Below are positions 3,607-36,972 of a DNA stretch of 64,000 nt, piece after piece; position 1 is the first letter of the stretch, and the number at the start of each line of letters is the position of its first letter. Both the position numbers and the translations under genes were made by a program. Origin of the DNA: Octopus sinensis (lineage: Eukaryota). Where the stretch lies: the NCBI RefSeq assembly GCF_006345805.1, contig NC_043006.1, positions 92,256,001 to 92,320,000 of the forward strand, given 5' to 3'. The notes beneath the pieces were generated by a model, which saw nothing but the letters and a program-made list of their open reading frames with translations, ran no database searches and was not told where the DNA came from.

Positions 3607-3639
<33 letters not shown>

Positions 3640-3750
3640 GATGAATATGGTACTTAAGTTGAGGCACCAAAATTTAGCACAGTATTATCCATACAATTTC
3701 AAAGTAAGGTGATTAAAATCAAAATAGGCAACAAGGATATCCAGAAGCAG

Positions 3751-3835
3751 TGCAGTACAATCGTTTCATGCAACTCTATTTAATTGAACAATGCAATCAT
3801 TACATCCATTTAAAATGTAGGGCAATCTTCAGCTC
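3751..3835 (-). ncRNA. Hammerhead ribozyme, degenerate inverted copy
   Basis: Minus strand reads CTGAAGA-TTGC...GCAT-GAAACGATTGTA-CTGC. Confidence 0.55.
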
Positions 3836-4755
3836 TACATTAGTAATAGTAGTAATTAAGCCATTTTATTTTATTTTCCATGGTGTTTTGCTCTACTTGA
3901 TTATTTTATTTCTTTATTAGAAAATTAATCTAATTTTTGCTTCTCTATAAATTCATATTTAGCTTTTATAAAACTATACTGGTAGATTCTCTACTGAAAA
4001 AATACTGCTTAGATAAAATGTTTATTAATATATAATTGACATGTTCCATTTACCCAAAATTCCTTTATTAATACCAGTATATAACAATTAATCAATATTC
4101 ACAGATACCTTCTGATGAGCTGGTATTTAAGTATACAATATCTATAAATTAAACTATTTCTGGATGACTTCTTTTCCTCCCTCTATTGTGGTAAAAGGTT
4201 TGGTATATACTCAAAAGTATTCATAAATTTCCATCCTTTTCTTATAATATTCTTCATAATTTCCTTGATTACCCTAAACTTTAACTGTATACATAGCAAC
4301 TTTGTTTAATATATTTAACTATAGTACCATATGATAAGACTTCCCCTGTTTCATTATCAATAGTCTGCTACTGAGCGCCCCCTTAATTATCAGCTAACAT
4401 CTTGTTTTAAGTTTTCCCTTATTAAACCTCATGATTATTACTCACAATAGATCTTGATTTTTTTATGACTATACCAACTATAATGTTTGTTTACTGCACT
4501 CAGCCCTACCCATAACAGATACTGCCCTCTCTTCTCTTAGCTTTTGATATACAAGGGATTTGATAAACTAGTCTATAAATTAAAACTGACCCTATAAAGA
4601 CAAAAAATCATTCGGAAGCAGAGTCTCCTTGATAAATTTTAGTAACTTCTCTGCTGAAGTAGGGACAACATGTTCATCATCTAGCTCCTTAACTTCTTGG
4701 AGATTTTGCTAATGTGTCCATCTGTTTTAATTTAAATTAAATTATATGTCTTTGT

Positions 4756-4840
4756 GCAGCTGAAGATTGCTCTACATTTTAGATGGACGAAATTGTTGCA
4801 TTGTTCAATTAAATGGAGTTGCATGAAACGATCGTACTGC
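4756..4840 (+). ncRNA. Type I hammerhead ribozyme with long stem II
   Basis: GCAG-CTGAAGA-TTGC...GCAT-GAAAC-GATC-GTA-CTGC. Stem I is GCAG/CTGC, stem III is the palindrome ACGATCGT, and the cleavage triplet is GUA. Confidence 0.75.
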
Positions 4841-4898
4841 CTTACTTCTGGATATCCTTGTTGATCTTTTTGATAAATATATATATGTATATATATAT

Positions 4899-4968
<70 letters not shown>

Positions 4969-7156
4969 TTACACGCAAAATATATACTTATATCTATATA
5001 TATGTAAATATATATATATGCATATGTGTATATGTATATAAGTGCGTATGTAATATATATATTAATGTATATATATATATACCCCCTACACATATATGTG
5101 TGGGTGTATGTGAATCTTTGTGTATGTGTTAGTGTTTATGAGTGTGATTGTGTGTGCGTGAAATGTGGCCATTTTGCAATTTAGAGTGCATTAAATAAAC
5201 TGGAAAACTTGTAGCTAAATATGTATTCAATATGTAAGACTTCAGCAACACATATGATATTATCGGTTTTCTACATAACTGTTGGTGTTTTTCGCCTTAT
5301 TTTCCTGGTTCCACACACCGAATATATTTATTCACGCATTATACAATTTTTAATGGAAAATAATCGATTCACATTTTCATGTGCGTGTTTGAATATACGA
5401 GCAAAATTAATCAATGAAAACGAAATTATTTTTGCCGATGGCTCAGATATTACATATTCCTTCTTGTTCCAATTAACGAACATGATAAAATCTAATACTG
5501 CCTGCAGGAATTTCCATATTAACAGTTTTCATTAGATATGTTCACCTATGATTCTATCTATTTCATATGAAACTTGTTGCTTTCATACCTTATTTTATGT
5601 CAATTTTATTTAGTAATCGTTAATTTTCTTCGCAAATCTCTCTCGATATGTCGACTACGTATATTTAATTTGGATCAAAGATCAGGAAATGTCGATAACT
5701 ATACACGTTATCAGTGTAGCTCTGTGTCTTTCTCGAATATTATAAATCTCCTCTAAATAAATATTAACAAATACTGGCTTTTTAATATAGGTTTTGCACG
5801 AATATTTGGGTAGGTAAATCAAACTAACACAAAATGTAAACGTTGAGAAGTATACACTGGAGGGAATTTAGAGAGACGGACAGGGAAATGCAAACATTAA
5901 CACATTTTAGTCAGTCTTTCGTATTAATTTTCTCACAGTACACGTGTATATCATCCGTTGGAATTAAGGTTAATTTTTACTTACTGGAATATTCGGACAG
6001 AGGAGAAACGAGCGCCGCTGAGGATTGCATATCAAGACTTGAAAAAAATTGTGATCGTTTAATTGAACAATGCTTACGAGGAGTTCATCATCATCATCAT
6101 CATCATCATCAATTATCATCAATTATCCTCCTCCTTCTCCCCCTCATCATCATCATCAACAACAACAACAACAACAACAACAACGACAACGAAAGACAAT
6201 TAGTAGAGTTGCAGCGGCAACAAACCGTCAGCCTGTTCGTTATTCCTGAGACAATGTCTTATCATTCAAAGGTAATTTCACGTGAGGCAGTTGTTGTTTA
6301 CGTACACGATATTCTGGGCCAGTGCCTGGAGTAAACTATGCCTTTATGTCCAAAACCATATACCCGAAGATATACCTAAACACATGCAAATCGCACACGC
6401 ACAAGCACGCCCTCATAAATACAAGCACATACACGTACAAATATATACATACACTCATACATACACATATGCATACATACATATATACATATATGCATAC
6501 ATGAATGCATAAATACAGACAAGCATACATGCAAACATACATGCATATACACTTACATAATACATACACACATACATACACGCAGAAACACATACAGACA
6601 CACACAAACATTCAGTCGTGTATATGGATGTACGCATTGCTTTCGAAGCTACTCACCTGAAGACGAGCAGTTCTGTTGCTAGTGACGGTTCATATTCATG
6701 TAAAATTGCGTATAATATGCGAAACACTCTGCAATTAACAGCTGATGCTAAATCACAGGAACAGCTATATTGAATTGAATCATTCCATCTTTCAGTATTA
6801 AAATTATTTTCATTCTCTCTCTCTCCCTATAGATATGTGTGTATGTGTGTGTGTGTATGTGTGTGTATGTGTGTGCTTGTGTGTGGGTGTGTACGTGTGT
6901 GTGTGTGTATTACTATACAATTTACAAACGAGGACACTAGAACAAGGGAAATCATGTTTGTTCACGTGTCTTCTCTCGTTTCAACGAGAACATTGAGATT
7001 ACTTGTACACACAAGCATGTTATTAAAACTAAACTTGCCTAGACTACATCTCCAGAGCATGAAACTATTAGCTGCTCGTGACTGTATGCTGTGTACATTA
7101 AATAACATTTATCTCGTCATGAAGTACATTTTTCTTGATATTACCTGAGCAGGGAC

Positions 7157-7223
<67 letters not shown>

Positions 7224-7967
7224 GTGTGTGTGAGAGTATGCATATATGTGTGTATATATGTGTATGTATATATATATATATAAATATATATAAATATATA
7301 TATAAATATTCATATACATATTCATATATTCACACACACACATATTTATATGTATACATATATACGCAAACAAAAATACCTATTAACACGTGCGCGTACT
7401 TATACACATAAAATATATGTATGGGAAATTATGCTTTGTGAAAACACATACTGCACCGCATGGTAGTTTTCAAAGTATTATAAGATGTGACACACCTTGC
7501 AGCCTGAATTGTTGGATAAGATGATTTAAAGTCAACACATTAAGGCGGCAAAATACGTTTATGAACGAAATACTCATGAGACATTTTCTAATGGCCTTTG
7601 TGCACATCACAGCTAGGACGAGAAATTCCATTCGTGTAGGTGTAATAAAATAACATTGAACCAAATATTCTTGAGTGCATATAAACTAGAATATATTAAG
7701 GTAATTTTGGCGTAAATCTCAGAACTACTAAAAGCATTATTGGTATCTATAAAAACATGACTGTTATTAATAGTATTCAATAGAATTGCCTACTGTGTTG
7801 CTTCTGAAACACATCAAACAACTGTTTCTGTATTGAATGGATTGCTTCTATTCCTATCAAATACATTCGTTGTTTGCTACGAACAATTTATGCTTCCTTA
7901 TAGGTCAACAAGTATCCACACATTCACACAGAGCACGTCTGCAAAATGTATACAGTAGTGTGTGTGT

Positions 7968-8000
<33 letters not shown>

Positions 8001-8155
8001 CGTATATAGATTCATATATATATATATATGTATGTATATACGTATGTACACATATACACATAGACATACACACACACACACTTATATAGACATATATATA
8101 TATGTATGTATATATATATGTATATATATATATATAATATATATATATATATATA

Positions 8156-8187
<32 letters not shown>

Positions 8188-8282
8188 TATATATATATAT
8201 ATATATACATACAATTGATTTGCAAAATAGTGGTTTTGTCTTTAATTAATATTATATACATACATACATATATCTTATATAT

Positions 8283-8374
<92 letters not shown>

Positions 8375-8714
8375 GTATATTATATGAATGATATCAGAAT
8401 CCTGTTTTAGAACATTCGTAGCATAACGTATAATTCGTGATAGATTTAATTATAATGAATTTCATCATACCATAGACAGTACAAGGCTTTCCGACGATGA
8501 CTGCTTATATGGCACAGTATCATAAATTAATCTAATTAATCAGAGATTAATTTAATTAATCGAAAATTAAGTGATATCTTCTACTCGTTTCTGTTCTCTG
8601 TTAATGAAGTCCTGCTCCAAATATCTGTTATGTTTCCTAGTGTTTATTTTCCCCACATCCTTGTTGCTGGATCGGGTCTATTCTAATTTCTCGTATCATT
8701 AGAAACTTGTGCGT

Positions 8715-9095
8715 TGGATATGTGACAGTTTGCTCTATGCCAGAACGGGACGACACTGCATAGTGCTAAAGATCCCAGCAATGCCATCACGCTTCAGGAC
8801 AAGTTATTGCAACAGCCTGGGTTTTAAGGGCACACAGCTTTTTGATATTCTCCCAAAGAGTCTGAGGAACTTGCACAAAGTAGATGTAGGGATTTTAAAA
8901 TCAAAGCTGGACCTCTTCCTGTCGAGTGTCCCAGATGAACCTACCTCACGGCAAGAGGTGCAAATGAGGGTAGCTATATCAAACTCCATGCTTCACCATG
9001 TGCCACACATTAGAGGAGGCTCTTAGCAATAACAGTGCAGCAAAACGATGGTGCATCAGTATGGCCACAGCTCTGAGCTGAAACTTAAGAAAAAA
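8715..9095 (+). mobile_element. CR1/L2-group LINE ORF2 C-terminus and 3' tail
   Basis: RTGRHC...NSL..KG..LF..LP..LR....(F)KSKLD.FL..VPDEP C-terminal signature, then a short tail and A-run. Confidence 0.7.

Positions 9096-10812: not shown

Positions 10813-10815
<3 letters not shown>

Positions 10816-10875
<60 letters not shown>
10816..10875. repeat. (GT)n microsatellite
   Basis: Direct reading. Confidence 0.98.
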
Positions 10876-10877
<2 letters not shown>

Positions 10878-11522: not shown

Positions 11523-11555
11523 ATTATTATTATTATTATTATTATTATCATTATT

Positions 11556-12110: not shown

Positions 12111-12164
<54 letters not shown>

Positions 12165-16900: not shown

Positions 16901-18517
16901 TCAGAACCCTCGATTAGATAGTCGCATATCCCGCAATGGGTCTTCCACATTTTTTACTGTCGGCTTCTGTGTTGAAGAGTGAATTCGGGCTTGTGTAAGG
17001 AGACTTTTCATGGATCTAGGCTGTCTTTTGCTTTTTATGATCGTGTGTGTTTGGAGGATTGTGTTCATTCTGTGGTCTTTTTTTAGGAGGGGTATGTTGT
17101 GGAGGATGGTGTCGAAGGCTTCGTTATTGAGAGGGTTGTGTGTGGAGATGTATGGTAAGGCTTTTGGTTGTAAGTTTTTCTTTGATTTGGGATGTCTCAG
17201 TTCCTTGATGTTAAGTTGAAGGGCACGTTGAATGCATTTGTCAATAAGTGAAGGTGGATAGTTCCTGGTGATTAGGGTATCTTTTAGTTCTTGTAGTCGT
17301 GTGTCTCTGGTGTTTGCGTTAGAAACTATAGTGCATATCCTTTTTGCTAGATTGAAGGGGATATTCATCCTGGTGTGTCTGGGGTGGCATGAATTGAATG
17401 GAAGATATTGCTTAGAGTCTGTAGGCTTATAGTATATGTCTGTTTCTATTATATTATTAGCTTTCTTAATGAAGATATCGAGGAAGGGGAGTTGTTGTTG
17501 GCTATATTCCATCGTGAATTGGATGTTTACGTCCAGTCCGTTTAAAATTTTCTGGAATTCTATGAGTTTTTCTATATTTTTATGCCAAAGGATGAAACAG
17601 TCATCTAGATATCTCTTCCAGTTGTTTTCTATGTAGATGGAGAAAGGGCTGCCATATCGTTCTAGAACCTTACGATACAGACTGATCTCTAGGTATCCTA
17701 TGACTAGGTTGGCAAAGGAGGGGGCCATTCGTGTACCCATCGCAGTCCCCGATTTTTGTCGGTAGAAGTTGTCATTGAAGGCGAAGAAGTTATTTTCCAG
17801 GATGAATTTAACCCCTTCTATCACAAATTCTTTTTTGATGCGGTGTGGTAGTTTGTTGGCGTGATTCTCTAGCCAGAATTGGATTGCCTCTAGTCCTAGG
17901 TTGTGGGGGATATTGGAGTAGAGGTTGACTACATCGAAGGATACCAGTATGGTGTTTTTGTTTATAGTATTCGGTAGGTGATTGAGCATATCTAAGTCGT
18001 CCCTTATATAGCTTTTGACATGTTTGAGGAGTGGTTTTAACAGGGTGTCTAAAAAGTTACTGAGGCGGTGGGTTTCGCATGCGGGACCTGCTATTATGGG
18101 TCTCAATTTGAGGTCATTAGGATTAGGGACTTTAATTATTTTGTCTGTAGCTATCTTGCATGCGTTGCTTATTTTTTCACTTTTGTGGATCTTAGGTATA
18201 CCGTAGAATTGGCTAGTTTTACTTGTGAAATTGGTCATATAATCATATTCTTTGTCGGTTAGCCCTGCTTTGTATGGGTTTAATATGGATTTTAGTTCCC
18301 TCATTATTTTTTGTTGACTGTAGTTTTGTGCCTTTTCATAGTATGTTGTGTCTTCCAGCATAGAAAGTACCAAAGTTATGTAAAATGTCGTATCTATTAA
18401 GACAACAGCACTCCCTTTATCGGCCTCTTTGATTGTTATTGTTTTATCTAGTTTTAATTTGTTCAACTCAGCCCATTCTTTTTTGCTGAAGTTTGGTTTG
18501 TGTTTTTGTTTGTGCAT
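16901..18517 (-). CDS. PLE reverse transcriptase (538-aa open segment; C-terminal endonuclease frameshifted)
   Basis: ADKG, FYGIPKIHK, RPII, SFDVVNLY, GTAMG, RYLDD, LPFLD, YYKPT and SCHP motifs. Confidence 0.9.
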   Translation of the reverse strand: MHKQKHKPNFSKKEWAELNKLKLDKTITIKEADKGSAVVLIDTTFYITLVLSMLEDTTYYEKAQNYSQQKIMRELKSILNPYKAGLTDKEYDYMTNFTSKTSQFYGIPKIHKSEKISNACKIATDKIIKVPNPNDLKLRPIIAGPACETHRLSNFLDTLLKPLLKHVKSYIRDDLDMLNHLPNTINKNTILVSFDVVNLYSNIPHNLGLEAIQFWLENHANKLPHRIKKEFVIEGVKFILENNFFAFNDNFYRQKSGTAMGTRMAPSFANLVIGYLEISLYRKVLERYGSPFSIYIENNWKRYLDDCFILWHKNIEKLIEFQKILNGLDVNIQFTMEYSQQQLPFLDIFIKKANNIIETDIYYKPTDSKQYLPFNSCHPRHTRMNIPFNLAKRICTIVSNANTRDTRLQELKDTLITRNYPPSLIDKCIQRALQLNIKELRHPKSKKNLQPKALPYISTHNPLNNEAFDTILHNIPLLKKDHRMNTILQTHTIIKSKRQPRSMKSLLTQARIHSSTQKPTVKNVEDPLRDMRLSNRGF

Positions 18518-18538
18518 ATGTTGATATGTATATATATA

Positions 18539-18569
<31 letters not shown>

Positions 18570-18740
18570 ATGTAAAGTATAGAAGCCATCTTATCATGGC
18601 TAACCACATTGGGGAGGGGGTGTTACTGTAGCTTTATAGCCCCAAGAGATCTTCGTCTCTAGCTGTCTTTAGACACAATATCTGTGTCCTTGGAGTATTT
18701 GCAAAGGGAGGCCATCCCTTCCTCGCAAGCCTGAGTGATA

Positions 18741-18783
18741 CGCTCGAACTAGTTTCAGGATTTTTGTCCCTCGTCAACGGGCG
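18741..18783 (-). ncRNA. Hammerhead ribozyme, inverted copy
   Basis: Reverse complement of 18980-19022, with one G-U pair in stem II. Confidence 0.75.
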
Positions 18784-18979
18784 GTAACCACCAGGTAGCG
18801 ATGAAAGAGAAGGCTCCTTTGCAAATAGATATAAGTTTTTCTAATGGCATCTGCCACTAATGTCGAAAAACGAACAGTAAGCATAATTAAATCTCAGAAT
18901 GAGATTGAAACAGTAATCGCTCGATAACTTATATCTATTTGCAAAGGAGCCTTCTCTTTCATCGCTACCTGGTTGTTAC

Positions 18980-19022
18980 CGCCCGTTGACGAGGGACAAA
19001 AATCCCGAAACTAGTTCGAGCG
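18980..19022 (+). ncRNA. Minimal type I hammerhead ribozyme
   Basis: CGCCCG-TTGACGA-GGGA-caaaaa-TCCC-GAAAC-TA-GTT-CGAGCG. Confidence 0.8.
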
Positions 19023-19453
19023 TATCATTCGGGCTTGCGAGGAAGGGATAGCCTCCCTTTGCAAATACTCCAAGGACACAGATATTGTGTCTAAAGCCAG
19101 CTAGAGACGAAGATCTCTTGGGGCTATAAAGCTACAGTAACACCCCCTCCCCAATGTGGTTAGCCATGATAAGATGGCTTCTATACTTTACATTTTCGAG
19201 CGATTACTGTTTCAATCTCATTCCGAGATTTAATTATGCTTACTGTTCGTTTTTCGACATCAGTGGCAGACGCCATTAGAAAAACTTATATCTATATATA
19301 GATGGCTTCTATACTTTACATTATCGAGCAATTACTGTTTCAATCACATTCTGAGATTTAATTATGCTATATATATATATATATCATTATATATATTACA
19401 TACATAAATATATCTATATACACATATATATGTGTGTATATATATATGAATAT

Positions 19454-19837: not shown

Positions 19838-20300
19838 ATATATACAAATATATATATATATGTATGTATAGTTTTATATTTATATATTATTTTATTAATT
19901 AATTAATTTATTTATTCATTTATTTATATATTTATTTCTTAAATATCAAAAGTATGAAAAGTTTAATAAAAGATAAAAACACTACGATCGTTTCATGGCT
20001 GTACCAATTCGAATAACAATAATTTAAATTCAATTAATAATTCGAGTTATGGTTACAGTCAATCTTAATTGAAATATTTTTAAAATAATCAGAAATATTT
20101 AAACAATATTTTAAAAATATAAATAATATCATAATTTTACTTATAATAAACTCTATTATCAAACTAGAAACTTAAAACTTAACAATTATGATTATATCAA
20201 AATCGATTATAATGTTAAATATCAATTTTAATTTATAAGGTAGGAAACCCACCAATAATCTAATATCGGTAATAGTCTATATCTAATTACAAAAATATTT

Positions 20301-20692
20301 AAATATATAAAAGAGAAGTTGTGTGTCTGTCTCTTACGATTTAGATTCCTAACTACTCCCACATTTTGCAGTGCAGTTTATCCAAAACCGGGTATCTTAT
20401 AGTCGTGATTCATATCGAGCCCTTCTGGGTATTAGCGCGCGTCTACGATGAGTCTACGATTTTAAAAGAAAATTACCATCATTTTTTTCCATTTTAATGC
20501 ATTTTTTCGCTATTATATAAGGGAAGTAACTCTTTAAAAATGTCTACGATGAGTCAACGATTTTTAAAAAATTACCATCATTTGTTTTCCATTTTTAATG
20601 CATTTTTTGCTATTTTTAGGCTATAACTCTCTAAAAATGCATATATAGTTATTTCCCTTACAAACCCGAGCAACGCCGGGCGATACTGCTAG
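20301..20692 (+). mobile_element. Non-autonomous Helitron
   Basis: 3' end CCCGAGCAACGCCGGG hairpin followed by CTAG. The body matches the reverse complement of about 33090-33315. Confidence 0.8.
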
Positions 20693-21132: not shown

Positions 21133-21362
21133 ATTTCTATGTATCTTTTAAATGTGTTTACGGGAAACGTTTCAAATATGCAAATAAGGCTTCTATTCGG
21201 TTATGCCGGCCACAGTCTAACGATGCTGACAGGTGGAACAGTTTTGGGCATTACATCGATCTGTACCGATATAATGTACGATAAATATAGCAATAATAAC
21301 GTTTTCTCTTATAGGCACAATCCTTGTGCCTATAATATAGTAATAATAATAATAATGCTTGT

Positions 21363-22082
21363 ATGGAATTTATAAACATTTAATGCATCGCTACGCTCGT
21401 TTACACAAATCACATGTCTCTTAAGATCACATTCTATATTTTTGGGATAGTTGCAGTGTAGTTTGTAGTATCCATGGGTATTGGGTAGATCATCTTCTTG
21501 GATTCATTTCTTCAGGCGATATAACATTAGTAGATGTTTAACTGAGGTTTGTTTATCCCTTTTGACCAGTGCGAGGGTTTGTTGAGTGGGTATTTCTGTG
21601 TATATTTGTTTGGGAAGAGGGGAATGTAAGAGAAAGGGAGGAATGAATGGTAGTTATATGGGGATGGAGGTGTGGTGATGTTGGACGACTTATTTTGCTA
21701 TTCAGTCATCAGTTGTCAAGAATGGATGGGACATTCCTTTGTTCGATTTCATCACAGGCATAACTATCGACAATTAATTCTGAATTAAACAGGTCAGCCG
21801 GTACAGGCACTATCAATGTCGGCTGTTGGGGTTCATTGTCTGACTTGATAAATCATACTTTTTCATTGTGACCTTTTAATTCTTTGTGGTGGTAAAGTGT
21901 ATAGCATCCTAAATAGGGGTTGATTTAGTGTGAAGAAATCAATCTACGAAGATGATCAACCCAATGCCCACGGATACTACGTCCTACATCGTAATCATGT
22001 CAGGAATGTGTACTGTGATCTCAAGAGACAAATTATTTGTGGAAAGGCGCGTAGCGATTCATTAAATGTTTATAAATTCCAT
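21363..22082. mobile_element. Fold-back element with diverged 150-bp arms, each carrying a degenerate HHR
   Basis: 21363-21514 is the reverse complement of 21931-22082. Confidence 0.65.
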
Positions 22083-23379
22083 CCAAGGATTATTGTTATT
22101 ATTACTATATATGCATGATGACTATATTATGAATTACTTTAATTTCATATTCTTTCTTTAATACCTTAACACATTTTGCTTTGACTTACCTTTCTGGAAA
22201 ACATGCGTTTTTCGTTCTGAGTATCTTCGCAGTTTCTGAGAAATTTGTTCGTTTTACATATCATTGTTGTGTCTTTTCACTGCATGGAAGAGAGTATTTC
22301 CGTCTATTTTAGCCATATGCGGGATTATATTTCGGTTTATATTTTCTGTTATTTTCTACATTATCTTATCGATTTATTGCTGTGCATATTTGTAAGTCCG
22401 GATTATAATTTTGTGTTGGTCTGTACTCTTCCTCAATCGTTTCCAAGTTTCAATTTATCATAATTATTATCTTTATATTCATGTAACATATTCTGGCTAT
22501 TCCTATTTCTGTAACTTCAAATTCTGATAATGTTGAATTTCTTTTAAACTCTTATTATCGTCTGCGATGAGTAAATGTGGAGCTGCAAAGCGTTTGCATG
22601 TCCAAGTCGTACAAGAAATGTAGCAAAACGTGTCACCTCCATGCCTGTCTATAAATATTTGGTTTTACCAATGTGATATGTTAGAATAACAGTGCAACAT
22701 TACACAATCTGAGTCTTTGCTGAAGTTTGACTACATCAACCAGAGACTTATATATCGAATTTCAACTGTGTCAGTTGCTGTTTAGACATTGCGTACACAG
22801 ACCCGTGTGTAAATGCACACACGCCTGCAGGTACACAGGAACACACGTAGACACACGCATATATTAACATAGACTGATGATTATTTCTTATTTACTTCAA
22901 GTTAGGTGTCTTAATTAGAGATTAATTAGGCATTCATTAGACGGGAACAATGTTTACTCAATGTGATATTTTGAATCTAACGACAATGTGATGTTTTTCT
23001 CTCTTTATTGTCCAGCGTGGGAGTTGTAGATATGTAAAAAAATAATCACAAATTGTCTATTTTATAGGAAGCGCAAGGCATTATTAGCATTTTAAAAATG
23101 ATTATGAATACTTTGGATGTATCAGTGAAACCAAACTAGTATTTATAATATTGTCAATTTTGTTTTCTTCGTTGTTATGTTTTCTGCTAGAAAATCAATT
23201 TTGTTTCTTAGTTTTACTCTGAAGAGCGATTTTTCTTCTTTCATTTTGTGGTATCATATAAGAATGAAGCTCATTGATTATATTTTCTGATGAATGCGTT
23301 TAATTAAAAATTAAGGTATTAAACTAGGAGTAACTAATTTATGAGCAAGTATTTGTCTTGATCTCTTTATCTCACCTTA

Positions 23380-25010
23380 CCTTCCATTCTGCCTCTGCCA
23401 TCTTACCCATACTCCGCACCAATTTCCTGTTACCATTCGTTCCAATCACTCTAAAATACACACCCTCCACCGACTTCTTTTTCTCTCTTATTCTACCTTT
23501 TTTCCTGCTGTTCATATTCCACCTCATGCTTTATCCTCCAACTAAGCCAAGTTCTCCACGACTTTCCCGCTCGCACTAAGCAAAATAAACTCACTCCTCC
23601 ATCTTTCATCCAATCCCAGCCGATGCCACTACACTCACCCCTCCCCCTCTCTCCCCGATCCACTCTCATCTCATCCTGACTTCCACCCTTCCATTACTCT
23701 AACCCTCCCACACACCATCACCGTCCTTATCACGTCAACGACCCCTTTACCTGCATCTCTATTAATGTTATTTACACCAACTCCTACTCTCTGTTCTTCC
23801 TTGTACATTAGTCAAACGGGACGCCGCTTGGCTGAGCGGTTCGTGGAGCATCTCCGAGACATCAGACTCGGTAATGACGCCCCAGTCTTGCGTCAGTTCC
23901 GCTCTACCGGTCATCTGCTACAACATGTCTGTGTTTTGACTTTCTCTGCACAGAGTCATCCAGACTCCCGCCTTCGCTCTGAACATCAATTAATCTTCTC
24001 TCCTCGTTCTTTTGTGCCATATGGGCTCAACTCACTACCTCTCTTCATCTGACACCAACCCCACACGGATTTCCACACATCTCTCACATGCAACTGACCT
24101 TCTACCTGCATACCACCTACCTCGGTACCCTCACCACATATACGTCACTGTACAAACACCCGTACACAATCTTCAACTTATTACTCACTTCACACACCAT
24201 CAAATACACTCACAAACACCATTCCCACTCTACACACACAAGCACCGAACATTTCTCAGCACCCACACCACGCACTATTATCTACACGACTACACGCACA
24301 ATCTTCAATAGCGTCACCACACATATCACTATATGAGCATCCACACACACTGTTTAACTCAACACACACACCACACTATCATGCGCACTCTCACACCCAC
24401 ACAAGAACATAATACTAGAACACAGACACACATGCAACACGCATAGATACAGATAACTTTCACCCTTAATACATACACTATGCACATGTACATTATCAGG
24501 ACACACACACATACACATGTGCACACATCCCCTAAACAAACACACATCAACTGCTACCCACACACGTTACCTCCGCACATAAACCCACAGCCATAAGCAT
24601 ACTTACGGATATAGACACGTCCATACGCACACACACGCACATACTCGCCCACACATACATATTCACACATACACATTAACACACACCTTTCTCACATATA
24701 CAAAAACCACTGCGCACCTTAGACGTTTGGTATCACTGTTACGGTTATTACGATTATTATTATCTCCCTTTCATTCAGCCTCTCTTTCCAGTCATCTCAC
24801 CATGTTGGACTGCTGAACTCTGCCCATCTTTTCTCACTCCGTTATTTCATTCTCTCTCTCTTTTCTTTCCTCTTAACCATTTCTGTCGAAGATCCTAGGC
24901 TCAAAACGTAAAAGACTTGTCCATTTTCCCGAGTATTAATCTAATACACCTGATTGTTCGTCTTACACCTGTCTTCGTCATTTGTTTACTGTAAATTTGA
25001 ACTATATGTA
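23380..25010 (+). mobile_element. Decayed PLE 3' part: GIY-YIG, CA-rich UTR, degenerate HHR at 24879-24915
   Basis: FTC.S.NV...C..LYISQTGRRLAERFVEHLRDIR. The tail is homologous to 38100-38230. Confidence 0.7.
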
Positions 25011-27117: not shown

Positions 27118-27119
<2 letters not shown>

Positions 27120-27402
27120 TTCAGCAAAATTTAGATTCAAATTAATATGGTACTTAAGTTAGTTGCACCAGAATTTCTACGGTGTTATCCATATAAATCC
27201 ATGGGGTGATTATAATCAAAGTAAGCAACAAGAATATCTTCGGTAATTTGGTACGATCGTTTCACGCTACATCATTTTATTAAACATTGTAAGTATTACA
27301 TCAGTTTTAAAATGTTGAGCAATGTTTGATAAAATGTTTAATAAAATGTTGTAGCGTGAAACGATCGTACCAAATTACCGAAGATATTCTTGTTGCTCAC
27401 TT

Positions 27403-27410
<8 letters not shown>
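27118..27410. mobile_element. Short fold-back derivative of the 3636-4870 family
   Basis: Near-perfect inverted repeat of about 70 bp (27218-27288 / 27333-27403). The AATATGGTACTTAAGTT start is shared with about 3644. Confidence 0.8.
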
Positions 27411-27448: not shown

Positions 27449-30400
27449 TCATCTTGATCACCTTGACCGACCAGTCCGTCAGGCGTCCATTTGACACCGC
27501 TGGTCACAGCACGCTGTCCACTCCTCTCTGGATCGCGCCTTTCTCATCCACGTGATCCGAATCGTCCTCCTGAAATCGTAACCACCGTCGTGGAGGTCTT
27601 CCGGGTGGTCTTTCCCGCTCGCGCGGGTACCACTCGACAACTGCGTGCGTCCACTGATTATCGGTGAGCCGGGCGACGTGTCCCGCACATCTATACTTGC
27701 TGCGTGTATACTCTGCGATGACATCTCTCACGCTGGGCTTCTTTCTGATGATCTCGCTACTTATGTGCTCTCTCAACGAGATACCAAGCATTGACCTTTC
27801 CATGGCTCTTTGAGCCGTTACCAGTCTTTGCTCTTCTCTCTTTGTGGTAGCCCATGTTTCACTACCATATAACATTGCAAGCAGAACTGCGCTGTTAATG
27901 CGGTTGGCGCGGGTGGTCCTGTCCAACCTTCCCTTGAGCACATCCCTTATGCCATTAAACGCCTTCCACCCGGCCCTTACTCTCCGTGAGATCTCCTTCT
28001 CGATATCTCGGTACATATTCACTTCCTGTCCCAGGTAGACATATTCCCTTACCTCCTCTATTTCATCACTGCCGATCACCATTCAACCTGTTAGTACGTT
28101 GTCTGACCGCATGAACTTTGTTTTCATGCGGTTCATCTTGAGACCTACTGCAGAGCTTTTGATGTCGAGCTCCGTCAGCATGGTCTGAAGCTGATCCGTG
28201 TTTTCAGCGATGAATACGATGTCGTCAGCGAAACGGAGGTGGGTGAGGAGCTCGCCATTGATGTTGACACCACCTTGCCAGTCGATGCATCTGATGATCT
28301 GTTCGAGACATGCAGTGAAAAGTTTTGGGGAGATTGTATCTACTTGCTTCACTCCCTTCTCGACCGGCACTCGTATGGGTGATGACAGTAGAGCTATGTC
28401 GGTGGTGCATCCGGAATTTGCTCCTCTGAGCAGCTGCACATATTGCGCTTCGACTCCTTGCCTCTGCAGCAAGTTCAGCACTGCGTTGGTTTCGACGCTA
28501 TCAAAGACCTTCTCATAATTTATAAACGCAACGCAAATAGGCAGCTTGTACTCATTTGCTCGCTCAAGCAGTTGCGTTAGAGTAAATATATGGTCCGTCG
28601 TGCTGTAGTTCTTCCGGAAGGCTGCTTGTTCCTTCAGTTGTTGTTCGTCGAGACGACGTGATAACCTGTTCAGAATTATCTTCGTGAGACACGTGAGACA
28701 GCAGGCATATGGGTCGGTAGTTCTATAGATCTTCTCTGTCGCCCTTCTTATACAGCGGGATGGTATTTGACTTTTCCACTACGAGGGAATCCTTCCCTCG
28801 TCTAGGTAGTGCGTAAATCGCTCAGCGAGGATTTTCCAGAGCTGCTCTCTGCCTGACTTTTGCACATCCGATGTTATACCGTCTATCCCTGGAGCCTTTC
28901 CGTTTTTCATCGAGCCGATGGCTCTTTCAACATCACTGACAAGGATAGGTGGCACGTTTTCTTCCTGTAACGGCTGGACATTTCTGGTAGACTTAAAGAG
29001 CTTGGTGTAGAAGTCTTCGCAAACTTTTTTCATCTCGCTCTTCACGTTGACCAGTATTCCATCTGTATTTTTCAGGGCCGTCACTTCCGATCTATATAGT
29101 ACCCTGTCCCTCTTGCATTTCTTGAGGGTCTTCTTTTCCTCTGCGGCCTTCAAGAGCTTCTCCATCCGGTATGCCTCAAAGTCTTTCTGTAGTTGCTGAC
29201 GAATCACTCTGCTGAGAATGGAATATTCAAGGTGATGATCAATAGTCCTCTTCATATTTTTCCTCTCCTCGAGTAACTTCGTAGTTTCTTTCGAGATTCT
29301 TCCCTTCTTTTCTCTTGGGCATACTCCCTTAACCTTCTTTAAACTCGCCTTCAGTTTTCCTATCAGTGAGTTGTAGTCATCGTCTATGTCATCTCCTTGG
29401 TACCAGTCTGCATGATGGCTTCCTGCAGCTTTGCCTCGTTGTAGACTCGGACACGTTTTCCCTTCGACGCAAAATACAGCGCCATCTTCTCCCTCTTCCC
29501 GTCGATGACGACCCTCGCCCTCACCAGACGATGATCGCTGCCGGTGTTGAATGGCATCACGACGGAGACGTCATGTAATATGCGTCGCTTATCAACCAGG
29601 ATGTAGTCGATCTCGCTTCAGTGCTTAGAGTTCGGCGATATCCAGGTCCATCTCTTCCTCTCCTTCTTCCTGAATAGGCCTCTGCCATGGTAGCCAAACG
29701 TTCTCCTCTCTCTTTTCTCTCTCCCATGCCGAATCTCCCGACGTACTCCTTTCCTTGTCGTCCATGTCCAACCTTTGCCTTGAAGTCTCCCATCACGACA
29801 GTGTAAGTGGACTTCATAGCCAGCCCTTTGTCTAGCTGTCGATAGAATTCTTCCACCTCGTCGTCGTCGCTGGCTCTTGTGGGAGCATAGGTCTGGACAA
29901 TCTTGAGGGTGGCCTTCCCTGAGAGGTTCACATTTAGTACACCAATCCGTGATGATATGAACTGGCAAGAATCGACCCTCGAAGCCCATTCCTTACTTAC
30001 GATGAATCCGATACCTCCGACCGATCTAGCACCTTCTGCTCTCCCTAATCTCACAGTGCATCCATCTTGCCATCGTATACTCGGTTTCTTCTTCCAGCAT
30101 GTCTCGCACAGCCCTAACACGTCGCACTTGATCTTCTTCCTCTCCTCCATTAGGTGGTTCAGTTCTTGCCACCCTGCCAAGGACCTGCAGTTGTAGGTGC
30201 ATATGGCAAGTTTAGTCCCGTTCCATGACGGCCCTCGGGAACCTGTGATTCTTAGCAGCCTCTCGTCGCTCGAGTTGCACTCCGCCGTCATCGAGTGGCC
30301 CGATTGACGTTCTTTTCTCTTCGTTTTTCGTGCTGTTTTAGCCATAAGATGACGCCATCCCACTGGCTGGGCGGGCAGGCCGGTATTTTGTTGGATGGCC

Positions 30401-30483
30401 GTTGACTATTCAGGAGTTCATCCGCCTTTTATTGGGTCTTATTTTTCCATCCCACAGGGAGTCCAACAACACCCTGCTCACAT
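27449..30483 (-). mobile_element. RTE-clade LINE, near full length, frameshifted (APE endonuclease and RT)
   Basis: TYNCRSL, LGLCET, YAPT, MGDF, KAPGIDG, GVKQ.D.ISPKLF, LRFADD, YVYLG, LYGSETW and RPPGRP motifs. Inserted in (TA)n. Confidence 0.92.
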
Positions 30484-31690: not shown

Positions 31691-32335
31691 ACGTCTATGT
31701 CGGTCTGGAAAATATCGAGTCAAATACAGGTTTCGAAGTTACGGCAACGCATGAATACGTTAGATAATACTTTAATCAACCAGCCATCCAAGGTCTTGAT
31801 GTTTTTTCATGCAGATTTTTGAAAGCATAAACTCAGATTCCTGCTCAGGGAATTTAGTTTCAATGTTGATCAACGGTCAGCTTTGTTTTCTGACATGTTA
31901 GGTGGGAACTTATATTAAATCGAGGAATGATGGCAGCCAGCTCCGCTACTATTCTGCTGTACTTACATTTAATTCGTGCTGTACTTGCAGCACCTGAAAA
32001 TAAATAAACTAAGCATGAGTTCGTCTAAATCAAACTGCTCCCAGTTCGAAATGTATGTTGTTTACTCCAAGCTTCCTTTTAGAATAAATGGTTAACATCT
32101 ATCAATATGAAATGGTTTATTCAACGTAATATTGTTTTACTATCTTACAAGGTGTATTGTTTTTTTCCTGTAGAGTAAAAAAATGATAATTCTTTATATT
32201 TAAATAACTTTCTACAGTAAAATTCTTCAATGGGTAGGAGAACAGAGCGCATCTATTTCTAACTGTAGATTACTGATTGCGATATAGACATACACAAATC
32301 TATCGATCTATCTATATTATCTATCTATCTATCTA

Positions 32336-32404
<69 letters not shown>

Positions 32405-32441
32405 ACATACTATCTATTACTATATATATATATATATTATA

Positions 32442-32473
<32 letters not shown>

Positions 32474-33318
32474 CTAGCAGAATTGCCCGGCGTTGCTCGG
32501 GGCTGAATTGCTTGAAAGTACTGTTAATGATTGCACTGAATTATGATGATTATTCAGGCAAATACTGATATAAGTTTACGGTGGGAGATAAGGACTTAAC
32601 GATCAAACGTGTGCCATTGCATGGTTTTGGGGGAACCAAATTTCTGATGAGCATTATAGGGGCATCAACTCTAAGTTTGAGAAAGTGTGGTGGTAGTCCG
32701 GGGTGCTCAAAGGAATTGAGTACCTCTATTGGATAGTTGATGACGTCCTCTGGGTCAGGAGTTGTATCGATAGACTGATATACATAGACTTCCCCAGGAA
32801 TGAGTTTTAGCATTTCATCATTAATATGGTGAACAGTTTTATTCCTCGGGGCCAGTATAGCCTTTTTGCCAATCCAATCCATATTCTGATAATTAGCTTG
32901 TAGATCTGGGAACACTGCATCTCTGAGATCAGAAGAGGCGTCTAACAATGGTACAAATGGAATCGATGGCAATATTACCATTTTCATCCCCTGGTATTTT
33001 GCCTTCGCCAAGTGCAAGGAGGGTGTGAGGAAATGCTGCTGATGTGATATTACGTCGCATATGAGCACGCATATTGGTGTGAAGTTTGAGAGTTACTTCC
33101 CTTTATTTAAAAAATATGCATTAAAATGGAAAAAAATGATGGTAAATTATTTGTAAAATCATAGACTCATTGTACGCGCGCTAATACCCAGAAGGGCTCG
33201 ATATGAATGACGACTATAAGATACCCGGTTTTAGTTAAACTGCATCGCAAAATGTGGGAGTAGTTAGGAATCTAAATCGGAGTAGACACAGACACACAAC
33301 CTTTCTTTTATATATAAA
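32474..33318 (-). mobile_element. Helitron deletion derivative with a PIF1-like helicase fragment
   Basis: AILAPRN, YP.E.LNS....GLPPH.L.L....PIML.RNL and CNGTRL motifs. 3' hairpin plus CTAG at 32474-32502. Confidence 0.88.
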
Positions 33319-33320
33319 TA

Positions 33321-33990
33321 TTTTCGTTCTAAAAACTTTGTATGGATTGAATGGTACCTCTATGGAAATATATACATGCACATTATACATACATGTGTGT
33401 ATAGATGAATATATAAATACATTTAAATATCTATATACACTTTTGGGCGATCTTTCTGTTTCTTAGAGATAAGTTTAGATCTTATTTTCGTCCTAAAAAA
33501 ACTTGTATGGAGTGAATGGTTACCTCTATGGAAATATACACACACACGTTATACATACATGTGCATAGATGAATATATAAATACATTTATATATCTATAT
33601 ACACTTTTGGGCGATCTTTGTGCTACTTAGAGATAACTTTAGATCTTATTTTCGTCCTAAAAACTTTGTGCGGAGTGAATGGTTACGTCTATAGAAATAT
33701 ATACACACACGTTATAACATACATCTGTGTATAGATGAATATATAATACATTTAAATATCTATACACTTTTGGGCGATCTTTCTGCTACTTGTATACTTT
33801 AGATGTTATATTCGTCCTAAAAAAACTTTGTATGGAGTGAAAGGTTACCTCTATGGAAATATATACACACACATTATACATACATCTGTGGATAGATGAA
33901 TATATAAATACATTTAAATATCTATATACACTTTTTGGCGATCTTTCTGCTACTTGGATATAGGTCTTATATTCGTCCTAAAAAACTTTC
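33321..33990. repeat. Tandem repeat, about 4 copies of 160-164 bp
   Basis: TTCGT(C/T)CTAAAA recurs at 33323, 33487, 33651, 33811 and 33972. Confidence 0.92.
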
Positions 33991-34453
33991 CTGTCACACA
34001 CTCACGCACACGCACACACACACACACGCACCCTCACACACACACACACGCACACACGCACACACACACACACACACACACACGCACGTTAGCTTACAAT
34101 TTTATTTATATATTTGCGTGTCTATGTGTGTAAATAGGAAGTGGGAGGCAGAGTGAAAGAGTCACTCACTACAGAAAGTGAATTACTTTCGCTTTATTCG
34201 TTGCACACTGTGTGTGTGCGTTTGCGTGTGCTGTATCCCACACTAAGAGAAGCATTTGACTCATACACCACAATGTGAGTTTTCTCTAAATTTTGCTTAA
34301 TTGGGGTTGAAATTTTAAAAAGTGGACCTGGCACGACCCGATGCATTCTACTCTTAAAAATGCTAGGTAAATTGTAATTGAAGAAATCCTATATTGTAGA
34401 TTTCTATAACTGACAAAGGGAGGCAGATAAAATCTGCCTTTTATAATAAGAGA
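33990..34453 (-). mobile_element. Probable Helitron 5' segment
   Basis: Minus strand starts TCTCTTATTATAAAAG next to (TA)n, with a subterminal palindrome AGGCAGAT-aaa-ATCTGCCT. Confidence 0.5.
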
Positions 34454-34531
34454 TATATATATATATAAACATGTATGTGTGTCTACATGGGTACGTATAC
34501 GTGAGTGTATCTATCTAGTCATCTCTCTTCT

Positions 34532-34569
<38 letters not shown>

Positions 34570-36751
34570 AATATATCTGTTGTGCAAGATTTTGTGGCAA
34601 GTAGTCTTCTTTTACTTTTCCATAAACCAGGATGTGTGTATATATATATATATATGTGGGTGTGTGTGTGTGTGTGTGTGTGTGTAAATAGATTTTTATA
34701 TATCTCTTTTGATAAAAAAATGTAATATATACAATATGTATATATATATATATTTATAGCCTACTGGCAAATACATGAAGCACATACATTAAGTATACGT
34801 GGTTCATTACACACACACACATATTTATATATATATAAGTGTATGTGTTTGTATTGATAAATGAGAGTAGATTAGATGAATATATATATTTACAATACAT
34901 ATATATCTATAGATATGATAGTCACACATTCTGTTATATTTCTGCATATGAATTTAGGATAATACATGCTATCTTGGTCAACCATGTAGTTGTCCTGGAC
35001 TGAGTTTGTATCCAATTCTAATAAATGTATTTTATTGCTATTTTTGGAGGAAAGTCTTATTTTACATACACACATATACATATTAGCACATTTTCTAATA
35101 GGCATTAATACAAAATGGCTGATGGTTAGTAAGGAGAGACACAAATAAGAAAGAAGAAAGCAAAGGACCACTGATGTGGTCACAGGAGTGTGACGAAAGA
35201 ACTCTGGCCGAAATAAGATTAAGTTTAATGTAAAAAATAAATAACACTGAAGCAAAGTAAGACCAAATATATAGTGCGTGTGTTTTTATTGACTAAACTG
35301 GCAAAATGACCATTCCGAAATATAACAATATATATAAATAGGTTTTTGTATATATATATATACATATATATATATACATATATGTATGTATGTATGTATG
35401 TATGCGTGCAGTGTGTACGTATCTATGTAGCAATCTCTTTATGTCTATACGTAGACACACATAAGACAGTCATGTACACGAACCCACATACAGATATGTA
35501 TACATATATATATATATATATGAGTGGATGTGCGGGTGTGTGTGCATGCAGAAAAACATAAAGTGCATTGACGATACGTTAGTTCCACCAAAATCCATAT
35601 CTTAATTAGAGGTTAATTAAGCATTTGTTAGAATTCAATGTGATTAGAGTATGTGATTTTTCTGTCTAACCACAGTATTAAGTTTCTTCTCTTCATTGTC
35701 CAGCGTGAGATTTCCAGCGATGTATAAAAATTCACAAATTTTCTATTTTAAAGAAAGCATTATGCGTTATTAACACTTTAGAATCTCGTTAATATTTGAA
35801 TAACTAGAAATCTTAATTTTGCATTTTTTAAATATCTTTTATTGGTAAGCTTCTACAAAATTGATTAAGCATATTAGTTCTGCCCTAAATATATTTTTAC
35901 TTTATCAATATTAGCACCATATAATAATTAAGTCTTCTCAATGTGTGTGCTGAAAGACCAATCTAGCTAATATTGAATGTAGTCAAATTAACGTGTGCGC
36001 AGAACTTTCTTGCTCTTCATCTTCCTTTACACACTCTCTTTCTCTCTCTCACACACACGCACCAAATTACTGAAGATATTCTTGTTGCTTATTTTGATTA
36101 TATATATATATACATACATACATAAATACACATAGGTATATGATTATGCTTATATACACATATATAAACCTATATATATATATATACTGTATATATCCTC
36201 TGTATTGTCCAGCGTTGCCAGGTATATAATTACTGAAATATGTATATAACCACATAAATTTACTGCATTTTGGATGAGACTTTAAAAAAAAATTGGCGAT
36301 AATTTACATCCTGCTTACGTCGATTCCTCAGAAATGGTTGACTGAAACAACGAAGAATGAGGAATAATTTGAAAATTTGAAAATTATAAGGTAATTTCTG
36401 AATTTTAAACCAAATTGTATTCATAAATATATTAATAGTAAATTCAAGGAATAATCGACCAAAGATTTCTATACTAATTTGTGTTGCAACTGGAAATAAT
36501 TTTTGTCATCAGTAGCCAATATAATACACATCTTGAAGGTAATGACCGTCGGATAGAACCATTTGCTTTAAACTCGATTCCAATAAATAGGATTTGTGTG
36601 TCTGCCTCGTTGATGCTTACTGTATATGAAGGCTGACTGAGAACTGAAGCCGTATAAATTCAAAGGACACGTCTGTAGGAAGAAAAGTCTTCTAGCCAGA
36701 AAAAAACATCTTTCATTTCCATTATTTCCATTATTTCCATTAATTCCATTT

Positions 36752-36972
36752 TTGACGGATTTTGTCCTCATCTTGTTTGTTGTTAACACAATGTTGCGGT
36801 TGATACACCCCCCAACCTTCATCGGGTTTCTTGCGGAAGCTTCGAACCTAGGTTCTTATTCCTAAGGTATTTTTCGATGTTGTTATTAGTTCGAAACTTG
36901 CCCAAGACACCTGAAGAAGGCTGGAGGGTATATCAGCCGAAACGTTGTGTTAACAACAAACAAAATCCGTCA
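36752..36972. mobile_element. Small fold-back element with one intact and one decayed HHR
   Basis: 36752-36847 is approximately the reverse complement of 36889-36972. Confidence 0.75.
36906..36951 (+). ncRNA. Minimal type I hammerhead ribozyme, canonical core
   Basis: GACAC-CTGAAGA-A-GGCTG-gagggtatat-CAGCC-GAAAC-GTT-GTGTT. Confidence 0.88.

Follow-up and report, generated by a model that had tools for sequence, protein, structure and literature searches.

Inverted 5′ pLTRs and head-to-head arrangements of EN+ PLEs have been described by Arkhipova et al. 2013 (PMC3846280) and Craig et al. 2021 (PMC8557442). PLEs of the Hydra clade are characterized in section 11 of PMC8557442 by RWK, DKT and CxCX5C motifs, a C-terminal GIY-YIG domain with no CCHH, a hammerhead and an association with (TA)n; they target (TA)n and are known from Mollusca among other phyla. 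In vitro work on a Poseidon element demonstrated cleavage and extension of the two target strands by a PLE protein, with reverse transcription starting at two adjacent internal RNA sites bounding the tail; inversions are not modelled in the text consulted (PMC11167929). Pairs of minimal hammerheads (min-HHRs) located ~100–700 bp apart on opposite strands were found in Schistosoma by Cervera and De la Pena 2014 (PMC4209133); like the motifs described below, these min-HHRs have a helix III that is palindromic and an additional nucleotide following A9. Non-LTR retrozymes (Cervera and De la Pena 2020, PMC7229834; Li et al. 2026, 10.64898/2026.07.22.740005) are recognized by a non-coding monomer of 170–400 nt in tandem; the word “inverted” is absent from PMC7229834. 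Schistosome SMalpha/Sjalpha, as cited in PMC8490949, are short SINE-like elements with a type I hammerhead.

The 64,000-nt stretch of Octopus sinensis contig NC_043006.1 analysed here (the window) contains five elements, E1 to E5, which an earlier note regarded as outward-facing double-hammerhead fold-backs. Alignment of the arms recovered all five inverted pairs at the sites given there (Table 1). The hammerhead-sense strand was the minus strand on the left arm and the plus strand on the right arm in 5/5 cases, as had been claimed. The assignment to four sequence families also stood, E1 and E4 being 74% alike over 195 nt and the remaining elements unrelated, and so did the placement of three elements (E1, E2 and E4) in (TA)n, which flanks them at both sides. 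The statement that the elements have no recognisable ORF is correct inside the window coordinates but does not extend to the families, for which ORF-bearing relatives (L258 and L260) were identified. TSDs were not readable at any of the five window copies.

Table 1. Inverted pairs E1 to E5 of the window, their arms and their hammerhead motifs
Feature	Position	Strand	Description
E1 arms	3718-3839/4753-4874	left -, right +	86% identity
E1 short inverted arm	3637..3834	-	3′ end assigned to a Hydra-clade PLE, through long “tail” end
E1 long arm	3840..4874	+	5′-truncated 3′ UTR (913-nt “spacer”), hammerhead, short tail-less 3′ end
E1-right intact type I hammerhead	4756..4840	+	stem I GCAG/CTGC, CTGAAGA, 58-nt stem II region, GAAA-CGATCG-TA
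E2 arms	18569-18837/18926-19194	left -, right +	98% identity
E2 left arm	18570..18927	-	full 358-nt monomer, tail-less end; U3 hammerhead 18741-18785
E2 right arm	18926..19368	+	monomer 91-358, then 1-103, short duplication ending at 48 (tail end)
E2 right-arm hammerhead variant (U3)	18979-19023	+	
E3 arms	21335-21514/21931-22110	left -, right +	82% identity
E3 long arm	21140..21926	-	3′ UTR assigned to a second Hydra-clade PLE family, hammerhead, tail; left boundary approximate
E3 short inverted arm	21931..22110	+	starts within hammerhead core; tail-less end
E4 arms	27218-27291/27330-27403	left -, right +	96% identity
E4 left arm with tail	27118..27326	-	E1-related family; hammerhead 3′ half only
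E4 right arm, tail-less	27330..27403	+	GAAA-CGATCG-TA half only; junction within 12-nt duplicated word
E5 arms	36770-36847/36889-36966	left -, right +	83% identity
E5 left arm	36721..36888	-	3′ part of tRNA-headed short element, truncated in (TAA)n
E5 left-arm hammerhead	36785-36830	-	broken by substitutions
E5 right arm	36889..36975	+	carries intact minimal hammerhead
E5 right hammerhead	36906-36951	+	stem I GACAC/GTGTT, CTGAAGA, GAAACGTT

The fold-backs resemble head-to-head insertions of EN+ PLEs in that a 5′-truncated inverted copy adjoins the element, head-to-head polarity is commonest, a tail is located at one end only, a TSD surrounds the unit and palindromes occur at some junctions. 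Tails measure ~48 nt in the E2 family, ~35 in E5, 85–130 in E1 and, judged by eye, ~180 in window E3, compared to 30–40 bp in published EN+ PLEs, and, unlike the latter, several copies here are truncated down to two arms alone. The polarity of the Schistosoma min-HHR pairs is not stated in the available text of PMC4209133, while the pairs here point outward; stem II regions here are as long as 58 and ~105 nt, unlike those of the dual min-HHRs in that text, and the E2 core is U3 with G8, whereas the variant given there is U3-A8. Since pLTRs in head-to-head arrangement, tails and pairs of hammerheads on opposite strands have already been published (2013, 2014, 2021, 2024), we conclude that the fold-backs re-find a form of PLE insertion known since at least 2013, and that a new, self-copying ribozyme class is unsupported.

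The description of the elements as double hammerheads was not upheld. A first descriptor, which required a stable helix III, produced zero matches, and this requirement was then relaxed. The strict descriptor found 12 matches across 1.064 Mb, compared to none in any of 5 shuffles, and the motif thus exceeds chance. The canonical descriptor was passed by only 2/10 arms, E1-right (core 4760) and E5-right (core 36911); no window element (0/5) has two canonical cores, and no two strict hammerheads lay within 2 kb of each other in the 1 Mb sample. Rfam detected only E2-right, and weakly (HH9, 33 bits compared to a cut-off of 52; match 18968–19039). Helix III of E1-right (CGATCG) is palindromic, and stem I of E1-left is reduced to just 2 bp because the junction cuts it. 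The left hammerhead of E3 (core 21515, stem II ~105 nt) reads TAAA instead of GAAA at 21403, and its right counterpart begins at TGAAGA, without C3 and the 5′ strand of stem I. CUGANGA is absent from either arm of E4, and E5-left carries CCGATGA and GCAA substitutions. Both E2 arms read TTGACGA, a U3 variant common to 37/37 E2-family copies counted (one of them TTGACTA), with type I topology present and one mismatch in stem I. Single-strand folds of the isolated hammerheads were no stabler than shuffles (z 0.46 to −1.85), which is uninformative, as weak stability is expected for minimal motifs.

The expectation that transcripts of either strand would carry a hammerhead fails in sequence for E3, E4, the minus strand of E5 and largely for the minus strand of E1. 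Predicted folds of read-through transcripts contained the hammerhead without internal pairs in 10/10 cases, because it was paired to the antisense arm. By this prediction, read-through transcription would give long dsRNA in which the ribozyme is trapped.

The proposed link to PLEs was supported. By their motifs, E1 and E3 are assigned to the 3′ UTR plus pLTR of Hydra-clade PLEs, and E4 is taken as a Hydra-clade PLE 3′ end solely via its 74% homology to E1. A GIY-YIG region lies upstream of the UTR, in sense, in two copies of the E1 family (L126, L127) and six of the E3 family (L062, L068, L071, L075, L078, L084); the Pfam GIY-YIG match on the relative L246 (E=0.0007) was weaker than the cut-off. 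The long ORFs of L257 and L260 contain RW(K/R), DKT and CxCX5C and lack CX2-5CxxC. Fragments of the E1 and E3 families retain CxCX5C only, their RT parts not having been recovered intact. A Pfam RT search of L260 and L257 detected no RT, and the PLE RT of the window matched these relatives weakly around YxDD (E=0.001). Open frames of the Hydra-type relatives are 947–1124 aa long with asparagine-rich linkers and the L257 unit is ~4.7 kb, compared to generally <3 kb for the published elements (PMC8557442). Neptune was rejected as parent clade, since the CX2-5CxxC linker and the endonuclease CCHH are absent and the motifs point to Hydra. A link of E3 to the Penelope/Poseidon-like RT and GIY-YIG in L063 was also rejected: the L063 ORF is an insertion target only, and the true region upstream of the E3-family UTR is Hydra-type.

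In E1, the hammerhead core lies at 3832, and the short arm starts 2 nt upstream of it, leaving stem I cut; the arm spans positions 84–309 of a natural 330-nt 3′ end. In most of 30 genomic copies the spacer continues directly into the right arm; this combination is the natural element, and a fixed inversion junction in the ~30 loci was rejected. E3 reaches further left than earlier drawn, to ~21140, its tail having been matched by eye to other copies.

E2 is classed, on sequence grounds, as a 358-nt tandem retrozyme. The family consists of a non-coding tandem monomer, with ~3.9 units at L047 and ~2.5 units at L056, and 358 nt lies within the size range of non-LTR retrozyme monomers. It is like these elements in the length of its arrays (to ~3.9 units), in having one hammerhead of type I topology per unit and in TSDs of >4 bp, and unlike them in its non-canonical U3 core and in often being inserted head-to-head with a PLE-type tail. 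A PLE RT frame located beside E2 (16901–18544) has no DNA in common with it and is treated as a separate insertion in the same TA tract. No autonomous partner of E2 or of E5 was found.

Orientation was assessed in five 200-kb blocks (1 Mb) with positions picked blind, by counting same-family pairs within 2 kb; the seeds were drawn in part from families of the sample itself, and matches <28 nt were dropped. The predicted divergent excess was observed, with 12 distinct divergent loci (13 rows, two of which are one locus) and 0 convergent (binomial p=0.0005). Seeds S1, S2 and S5 are related and overlapping, which inflates the 8 tandem rows and 99 arm matches of the same count. In query-biased sets, E2-family fold-backs were divergent in 15/15 cases, and E5-family loci were divergent in 22 cases and convergent in 1 among 28 loci. 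Duplicate loci (6/30 in the E2 family, 2/30 in the E5 family) were removed before counting, and each DNA search scored only 40 of 1,585–3,792 candidates.

Among the fold-backs checked in the families of E1, E2 and E3, units with identical breakpoints were not recovered. Junctions all differ in 15/15 E2-family fold-backs, and the E2 junction itself occurs once in the genome at ≤1 mismatch. Short arms of the E1 family start at 84, 105, 187 and 61 of the reference, and the sole E3-family copy that seemed to span the E3 junction is different on both sides. As the earlier note had it, an inverted copy of the 3′ end is present; this copy is truncated at its 5′ side, and 3′ ends face outward. The “two 3′ ends” proved to be two alternative 3′ ends per family, one on each side, differing by the tail. 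Exactly one tail was found in 21/22 E5-family divergent pairs, 10/15 E2-family fold-backs and 5/5 E1-family fold-backs, on the short arm in some fold-backs and on the long arm in others. Window E1 to E4 obey this rule; the exceptions are 5/15 E2-family fold-backs, the E3-family locus L269 and window E5. Non-repetitive TSDs of 12–14 nt surround three E2-family fold-backs and those of 9–13 nt surround at least nine E5-family fold-backs.

The E5 family has a tRNA-like head, which in alignment to 13/15 distinct genomic tRNAs beats all 200 shuffles (best score 65 versus a null maximum of 51); no tRNA was called in it by ARAGORN (17 loci) or Rfam (5 loci). The 3′ end of the family has no match in 20 PLE loci. 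Given its head, its adherence to the tail rule, its TSDs and its head-to-head forms, the family is probably a PLE-dependent, tRNA-headed hammerhead SINE. Like SMalpha/Sjalpha it is short and SINE-like with a type I hammerhead; it differs from SMalpha, as cited in PMC8490949, in its dispersed monomers, tRNA-like head, (TAA)n, two PLE-type 3′ ends and palindromic 5′ junction. In the literature searched, no report of a PLE-mobilised tRNA SINE was found.

The E5-family palindrome, CGCCATATGCCC-NN-GGGCATATGG, has 328 strand matches, i.e. 164 or more places, and its recurrence implies that a short fold-back is inherited or else arises again at the RNA 5′ end. The palindrome is absent from window E5. 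At this 5′ junction the second arm is variable in length, mostly 16–32 nt, and among 12 loci the longer arm lies to one side of the asymmetric centre in 5 and to the other in 7. Two loci, L108 and L291, are full-length symmetric dimers. The 30 palindrome loci examined represent 21 distinct places; hammerhead-bearing arms lie directly on both sides in only 5/21, and the internal structures of these five all differ. Seven fold-backs of the family have a common junction of (TAA)n with TTCCCC, with the tail on the short arm in 7/7 (p=0.016, uncorrected). Two control junctions recur as often (5 and 8 matches, with loci only counted in one of the sets), and the seven loci share no diagnostic alleles, their short arms being 10.8% apart compared to a background of 9.6%. 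The 328 junction matches and the longer arm on either side of the centre leave room for a more tentative and rather doubtful extension, that this tRNA-headed hammerhead SINE on PLE machinery has a heritable palindromic junction: a double-headed copy would then serve as a two-way source, starting Pol III transcripts in both outward directions, one per head, and in this family alone a fold-back would truly propagate. With its PLE integration marks and its palindromic 5′ junction, found at no fewer than 164 places, the E5 family is the sole lead that we consider worth keeping; if confirmed, it would be a tRNA-headed SINE that depends on a PLE and not on a LINE.

Taken together, the five fold-backs are very probably head-to-head insertions made by PLE machinery from four families, each likely formed anew rather than copied from a fold-back parent. 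Each cut target strand would prime its own cDNA from the 3′ region of the element, one per start site, and the two cDNAs would end at variable points and join via short matches. With each strand priming its own cDNA from the 3′ region, both outer ends would be element 3′ ends, and, as the hammerhead sits just inside the 3′ end, outward hammerheads would appear on both sides if both cDNAs reach it. Polarity would be imposed by the insertion mechanism, and selection for paired ribozymes would be unnecessary. The same PLE origin is also compatible with a single cDNA that folds back at its 3′ end and copies itself, a route proposed, with palindromes at inverted junctions, in PMC3846280. The palindromic 5′ junction of the E5 family with its variable second arm agrees with such self-priming, as does the finding that two arms of one E2-family locus are 2.8% apart compared to 3.9% between arms of different loci, though one source locus also accounts for this likeness. 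A copied arm, however, cannot outrun its template, yet in E1, L007, L017, L025 and five E2-family loci it is the short arm that bears the tail, and we consider self-priming unlikely.

The class of non-autonomous double-hammerhead fold-backs proposed in the earlier note would be transcribed and re-inserted as whole units. The divergent excess in the 1 Mb sample is real, the hammerhead region is present in both arms of 11/15 E2-family fold-backs, and the recurrent palindrome, the symmetric dimers and the seven same-junction loci with the same tail side in the E5 family could all be read in its favour. Against these stand the unique junctions in the E1, E2 and E3 families, the lack of strict hammerhead pairs within 2 kb in the sample, the few E5-family palindrome loci with hammerhead arms on both sides and their differing structures, and the same-junction loci being no closer than background. 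The architecture is moreover found in the ORF-bearing copies L258 and L260, which have outward hammerhead pairs and one tail; since autonomous PLEs share it, the fold-back form is not tied to non-autonomy, and a propagating class of this kind is very improbable. Even less credible is an origin from two independent insertions in one (TA)n, later rearrangement, a MITE/foldback DNA transposon or an assembly artefact, although 3/5 elements are in (TA)n and PMC8557442 warns that such structures trouble assemblies. Independent insertions should be convergent as often as divergent, whereas 0 and 12 were seen; single TSDs flank whole units, and the arms abut with host DNA absent between them. Arms that are 2–18% different argue against read chimeras, and outer ends that differ by the tail, and are not identical terminal repeats, against a DNA transposon.

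For head-to-head insertion by PLE machinery, the one-tail pattern in non-coding passengers is support from genome sequence for priming on two strands at two start sites, so far seen in vitro with one element. It also links PLE integration to a retrozyme and to a SINE-like element through insertion marks rather than co-occurrence. Should the fold-backs be transcribed, they would supply much long dsRNA, as would any inverted repeat. Parts of the E2 family are covered by contigs from three putative-RNA runs and from one unlabelled run, with no listed piece spanning the stretch, and in these contigs editing is indistinguishable from alleles. Rfam miRNA matches in the window are simple-repeat noise.

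Inverted pairs of hammerhead ribozyme (HHR) motifs are present at all five places, E1–E5, in the window, and the outward polarity described in the earlier note was found in each of them: the hammerhead reads in sense on the minus strand in the left arm and on the plus strand in the right (5/5). The divergent excess predicted from it was also obtained. Among same-family neighbours within 2 kb in five 200-kb blocks, whose positions were picked blind, 13 divergent rows representing 12 distinct loci were counted versus no convergent ones (12 versus 0, two-sided binomial p=0.0005). The fold-back architecture is real and non-random. It is also the usual, already known insertion form of Penelope-like elements (PLEs), which often insert with an inverted 5′-truncated copy and a tail, the extra stretch of the longer of two alternative 3′ ends, at one end (PMC8557442). 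Head-to-head is described as their most frequent arrangement, junction palindromes being common (PMC3846280), and minimal hammerheads on opposite strands, 100–700 bp apart, were noted in 2014 (PMC4209133). The four families add new members to kinds already known.

The motifs of E1–E5 belong to the type I hammerheads, and their helix III is palindromic and very short, a form known from animal PLEs (PMC4209133). A strict descriptor for this form gave 12 matches in 1.064 Mb versus none in five shuffles, with no strict pair within 2 kb in the sequence scanned. Only two of the ten arms, E1-right and E5-right, pass this descriptor; defects of the others are listed in the table. The U at position 3 seen in E2 is present in 37/37 E2-family copies counted. 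The "double hammerhead" of the earlier note therefore holds for the inverted pairs but not for two working ribozymes: judged from sequence, the pairs are inverted 3′ ends, usually with part of a hammerhead. At five further places, hammerhead-like motifs or 3′ fragments of PLEs stand without a partner, so not all such motifs of the window belong to fold-backs.

A propagating fold-back class, as proposed earlier, is unsupported. The 15 E2-family fold-backs have 15 different junctions, that of E2 itself occurring once in the genome; E1-family junctions differ from one another, and the sole E3-family candidate for the E3 junction differs on both sides. Fold-backs account for 15 of 24 distinct E2-family loci (all 15 divergent), a frequency overstated because similarity to a fold-back query decided the ranking of the family loci; an unselected sample (five 200-kb blocks) contained 3 pairs among 15 E5-family arm hits. 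Every family favours two alternative 3′ ends, and one of each is found in 21/22 E5-family, 10/15 E2-family and 5/5 E1-family fold-backs; in the window, E1–E4 fit and E5 does not. Non-repetitive target-site duplications surround whole fold-backs at three E2-family loci (12–14 nt) and at least nine E5-family loci (9–13 nt).

For the E5 family, recurrence stood in part. The palindrome joining two heads has 328 strand matches genome-wide, i.e. at least 164 places. A different junction type had 6 exact matches, but two control junctions had 5 and 8, and seven loci with that junction have no diagnostic alleles in common and are 10.8% apart (background 9.6%). In 21 palindrome loci the second arm is mostly 16–32 nt, and hammerhead-bearing arms lie directly on both sides in five, each of different build. 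E5 in the window is without this junction. At one locus of the family, L291, derived variants are common to both full arms.

One PLE protein, studied in purified form, cleaves both strands and extends them from two neighbouring internal start sites, which delimit the tail; insertion in vitro does not depend on hammerhead cleavage (PMC11167929). Each cut strand would prime a cDNA from the 3′ region of the element, one per start site, and the two cDNAs would be joined after variable truncation; such two-strand priming and joining would force outward polarity. Self-priming of a single cDNA fits less well, since the longer 3′ end is often on the short arm, but may account for the palindromic junction. 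Counting against the reading of the fold-backs as insertion by-products, the tail is on the short arm in all seven of the E5-family loci with the 6-match junction type (p=0.016, uncorrected), whereas it is on the other arm in the three control loci whose second arm matches. A read-through transcript of a fold-back would reach the antisense arm first, and minimum-energy folds of such transcripts left the hammerhead without internal pairs in 10/10 cases; the predicted effect of the arrangement is a silenced ribozyme, not a doubled one.

The 913-nt spacer of E1 runs on unbroken into the right arm, as in the natural element; the inverted piece is the left arm. A GIY-YIG coding region lies upstream of the E1-family UTR, in sense, in the longer copies L126 and L127, and upstream in six E3-family loci. 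E4 is 74% alike to E1. Intact relatives (frames of 947 and 1124 aa) contain RW(K/R), DKT and CxCX5C and lack CX2-5CxxC; Pfam did not detect reverse transcriptase (RT) in them. The same marks, with a preference for (TA)n, are given for Hydra-clade PLEs (PMC8557442), to which the motifs would assign these relatives and the E1 and E3 families. Near-intact Hydra-type frames of 947–1124 aa with asparagine-rich linkers are found at loci L257–L260; hammerheads flank the ORF as direct repeats in L257 and as outward pairs in L258 and L260. Many similar long frames are present elsewhere, which suggests recent activity.

The 358-nt E2 monomer, in tandem up to ~3.9 units and with copies mostly 94–100% alike, fits non-LTR retrozymes as described (PMC7229834; bioRxiv 10.64898/2026.07.22.740005). 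The family is young and has spread with a U3/G8 core and a stem I mismatch, a hint that it may cleave weakly or have no need of cleavage. An autonomous partner was found neither for E2 nor for E5.

The short E5-family element consists of a tRNA-like head, (TAA)n, a minimal hammerhead and a 3′ end. The head aligned to genomic tRNAs better than all 200 shuffles for 13/15 distinct sequences; neither ARAGORN nor Rfam called it as tRNA. SMalpha is a described hammerhead SINE-like repeat (PMC8490949). The search, which covered papers but not repeat databases or supplements, turned up no tRNA-headed SINE bearing the integration marks of PLEs, an absence weakly shown; PMC13282606 and PMC10886601 gave nothing further. 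The family is a lead to follow up.

The window (C10:92256001-92320000 of a 2.72-Gb genome) is AT-rich, with abundant microsatellites and transposon fragments.

Features of the window and of related loci (window coordinates unless a contig is named)
Position	Strand	Feature	Remarks
2677-3126	+	GIY-YIG-like fragment, PLE type	Pfam match weak (E=0.003)
3637-4874		E1	left: most of stem I lost at junction
15796	-	unpaired motif or 3′ fragment	
16901-18544	-	PLE RT frame, 5′-truncated, 547 aa (Pfam RVT_1)	runs on in other frames to ~16520 with frameshifted GIY-YIG part; adjoins E2 across TA tract, no DNA common to both
18570-19368		E2 (hammerhead stretch 18741-19023)	both arms: U at position 3
19994	-	unpaired motif or 3′ fragment	
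~21140-22110		E3	left: GAAA mutated; right: begins inside hammerhead core
23546-24052	+	GIY-YIG-like fragment, PLE type	no Pfam match
27118-27403		E4	both arms: 3′ half of hammerhead only
27504-30405	-	LINE, broken	endonuclease and RT frames
32550-33092	-	Pif1 helicase fragment	presumably Helitron-like
33319-33989		tandem repeat, unit 164 nt, ~4 units	kin to 20289-20481
36058-36102	+	unpaired motif or 3′ fragment	
36721-36975		E5	left: broken by substitutions; family loci L277-L306, L108, L113, L116
38099-38164	+	unpaired motif or 3′ fragment	
40981-41170	-	unpaired motif or 3′ fragment	
41271-41471		imperfect hairpin, ~200 nt (80%)	adjoins TA tract; without hammerhead
49022-49457		436-nt element between TA tracts, inverted ends 59 nt	GAAAC..GTA words point inward; no CUGANGA core found; relatives scattered among examined genomic loci
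53076-54333		Tc1/mariner-like element, inverted ends 40 nt	broken transposase (Pfam Transposase_1)
C2:167683500-167693200		L126, E1-family 3′ UTR >2.5 kb	internal repeats ~70% identical
C10 block, 107221 and 113611 (L143-L156 region)	- and +	identical U3-A8 core hammerheads, outward-facing, 6.4 kb apart	probably a full-length inverted PLE
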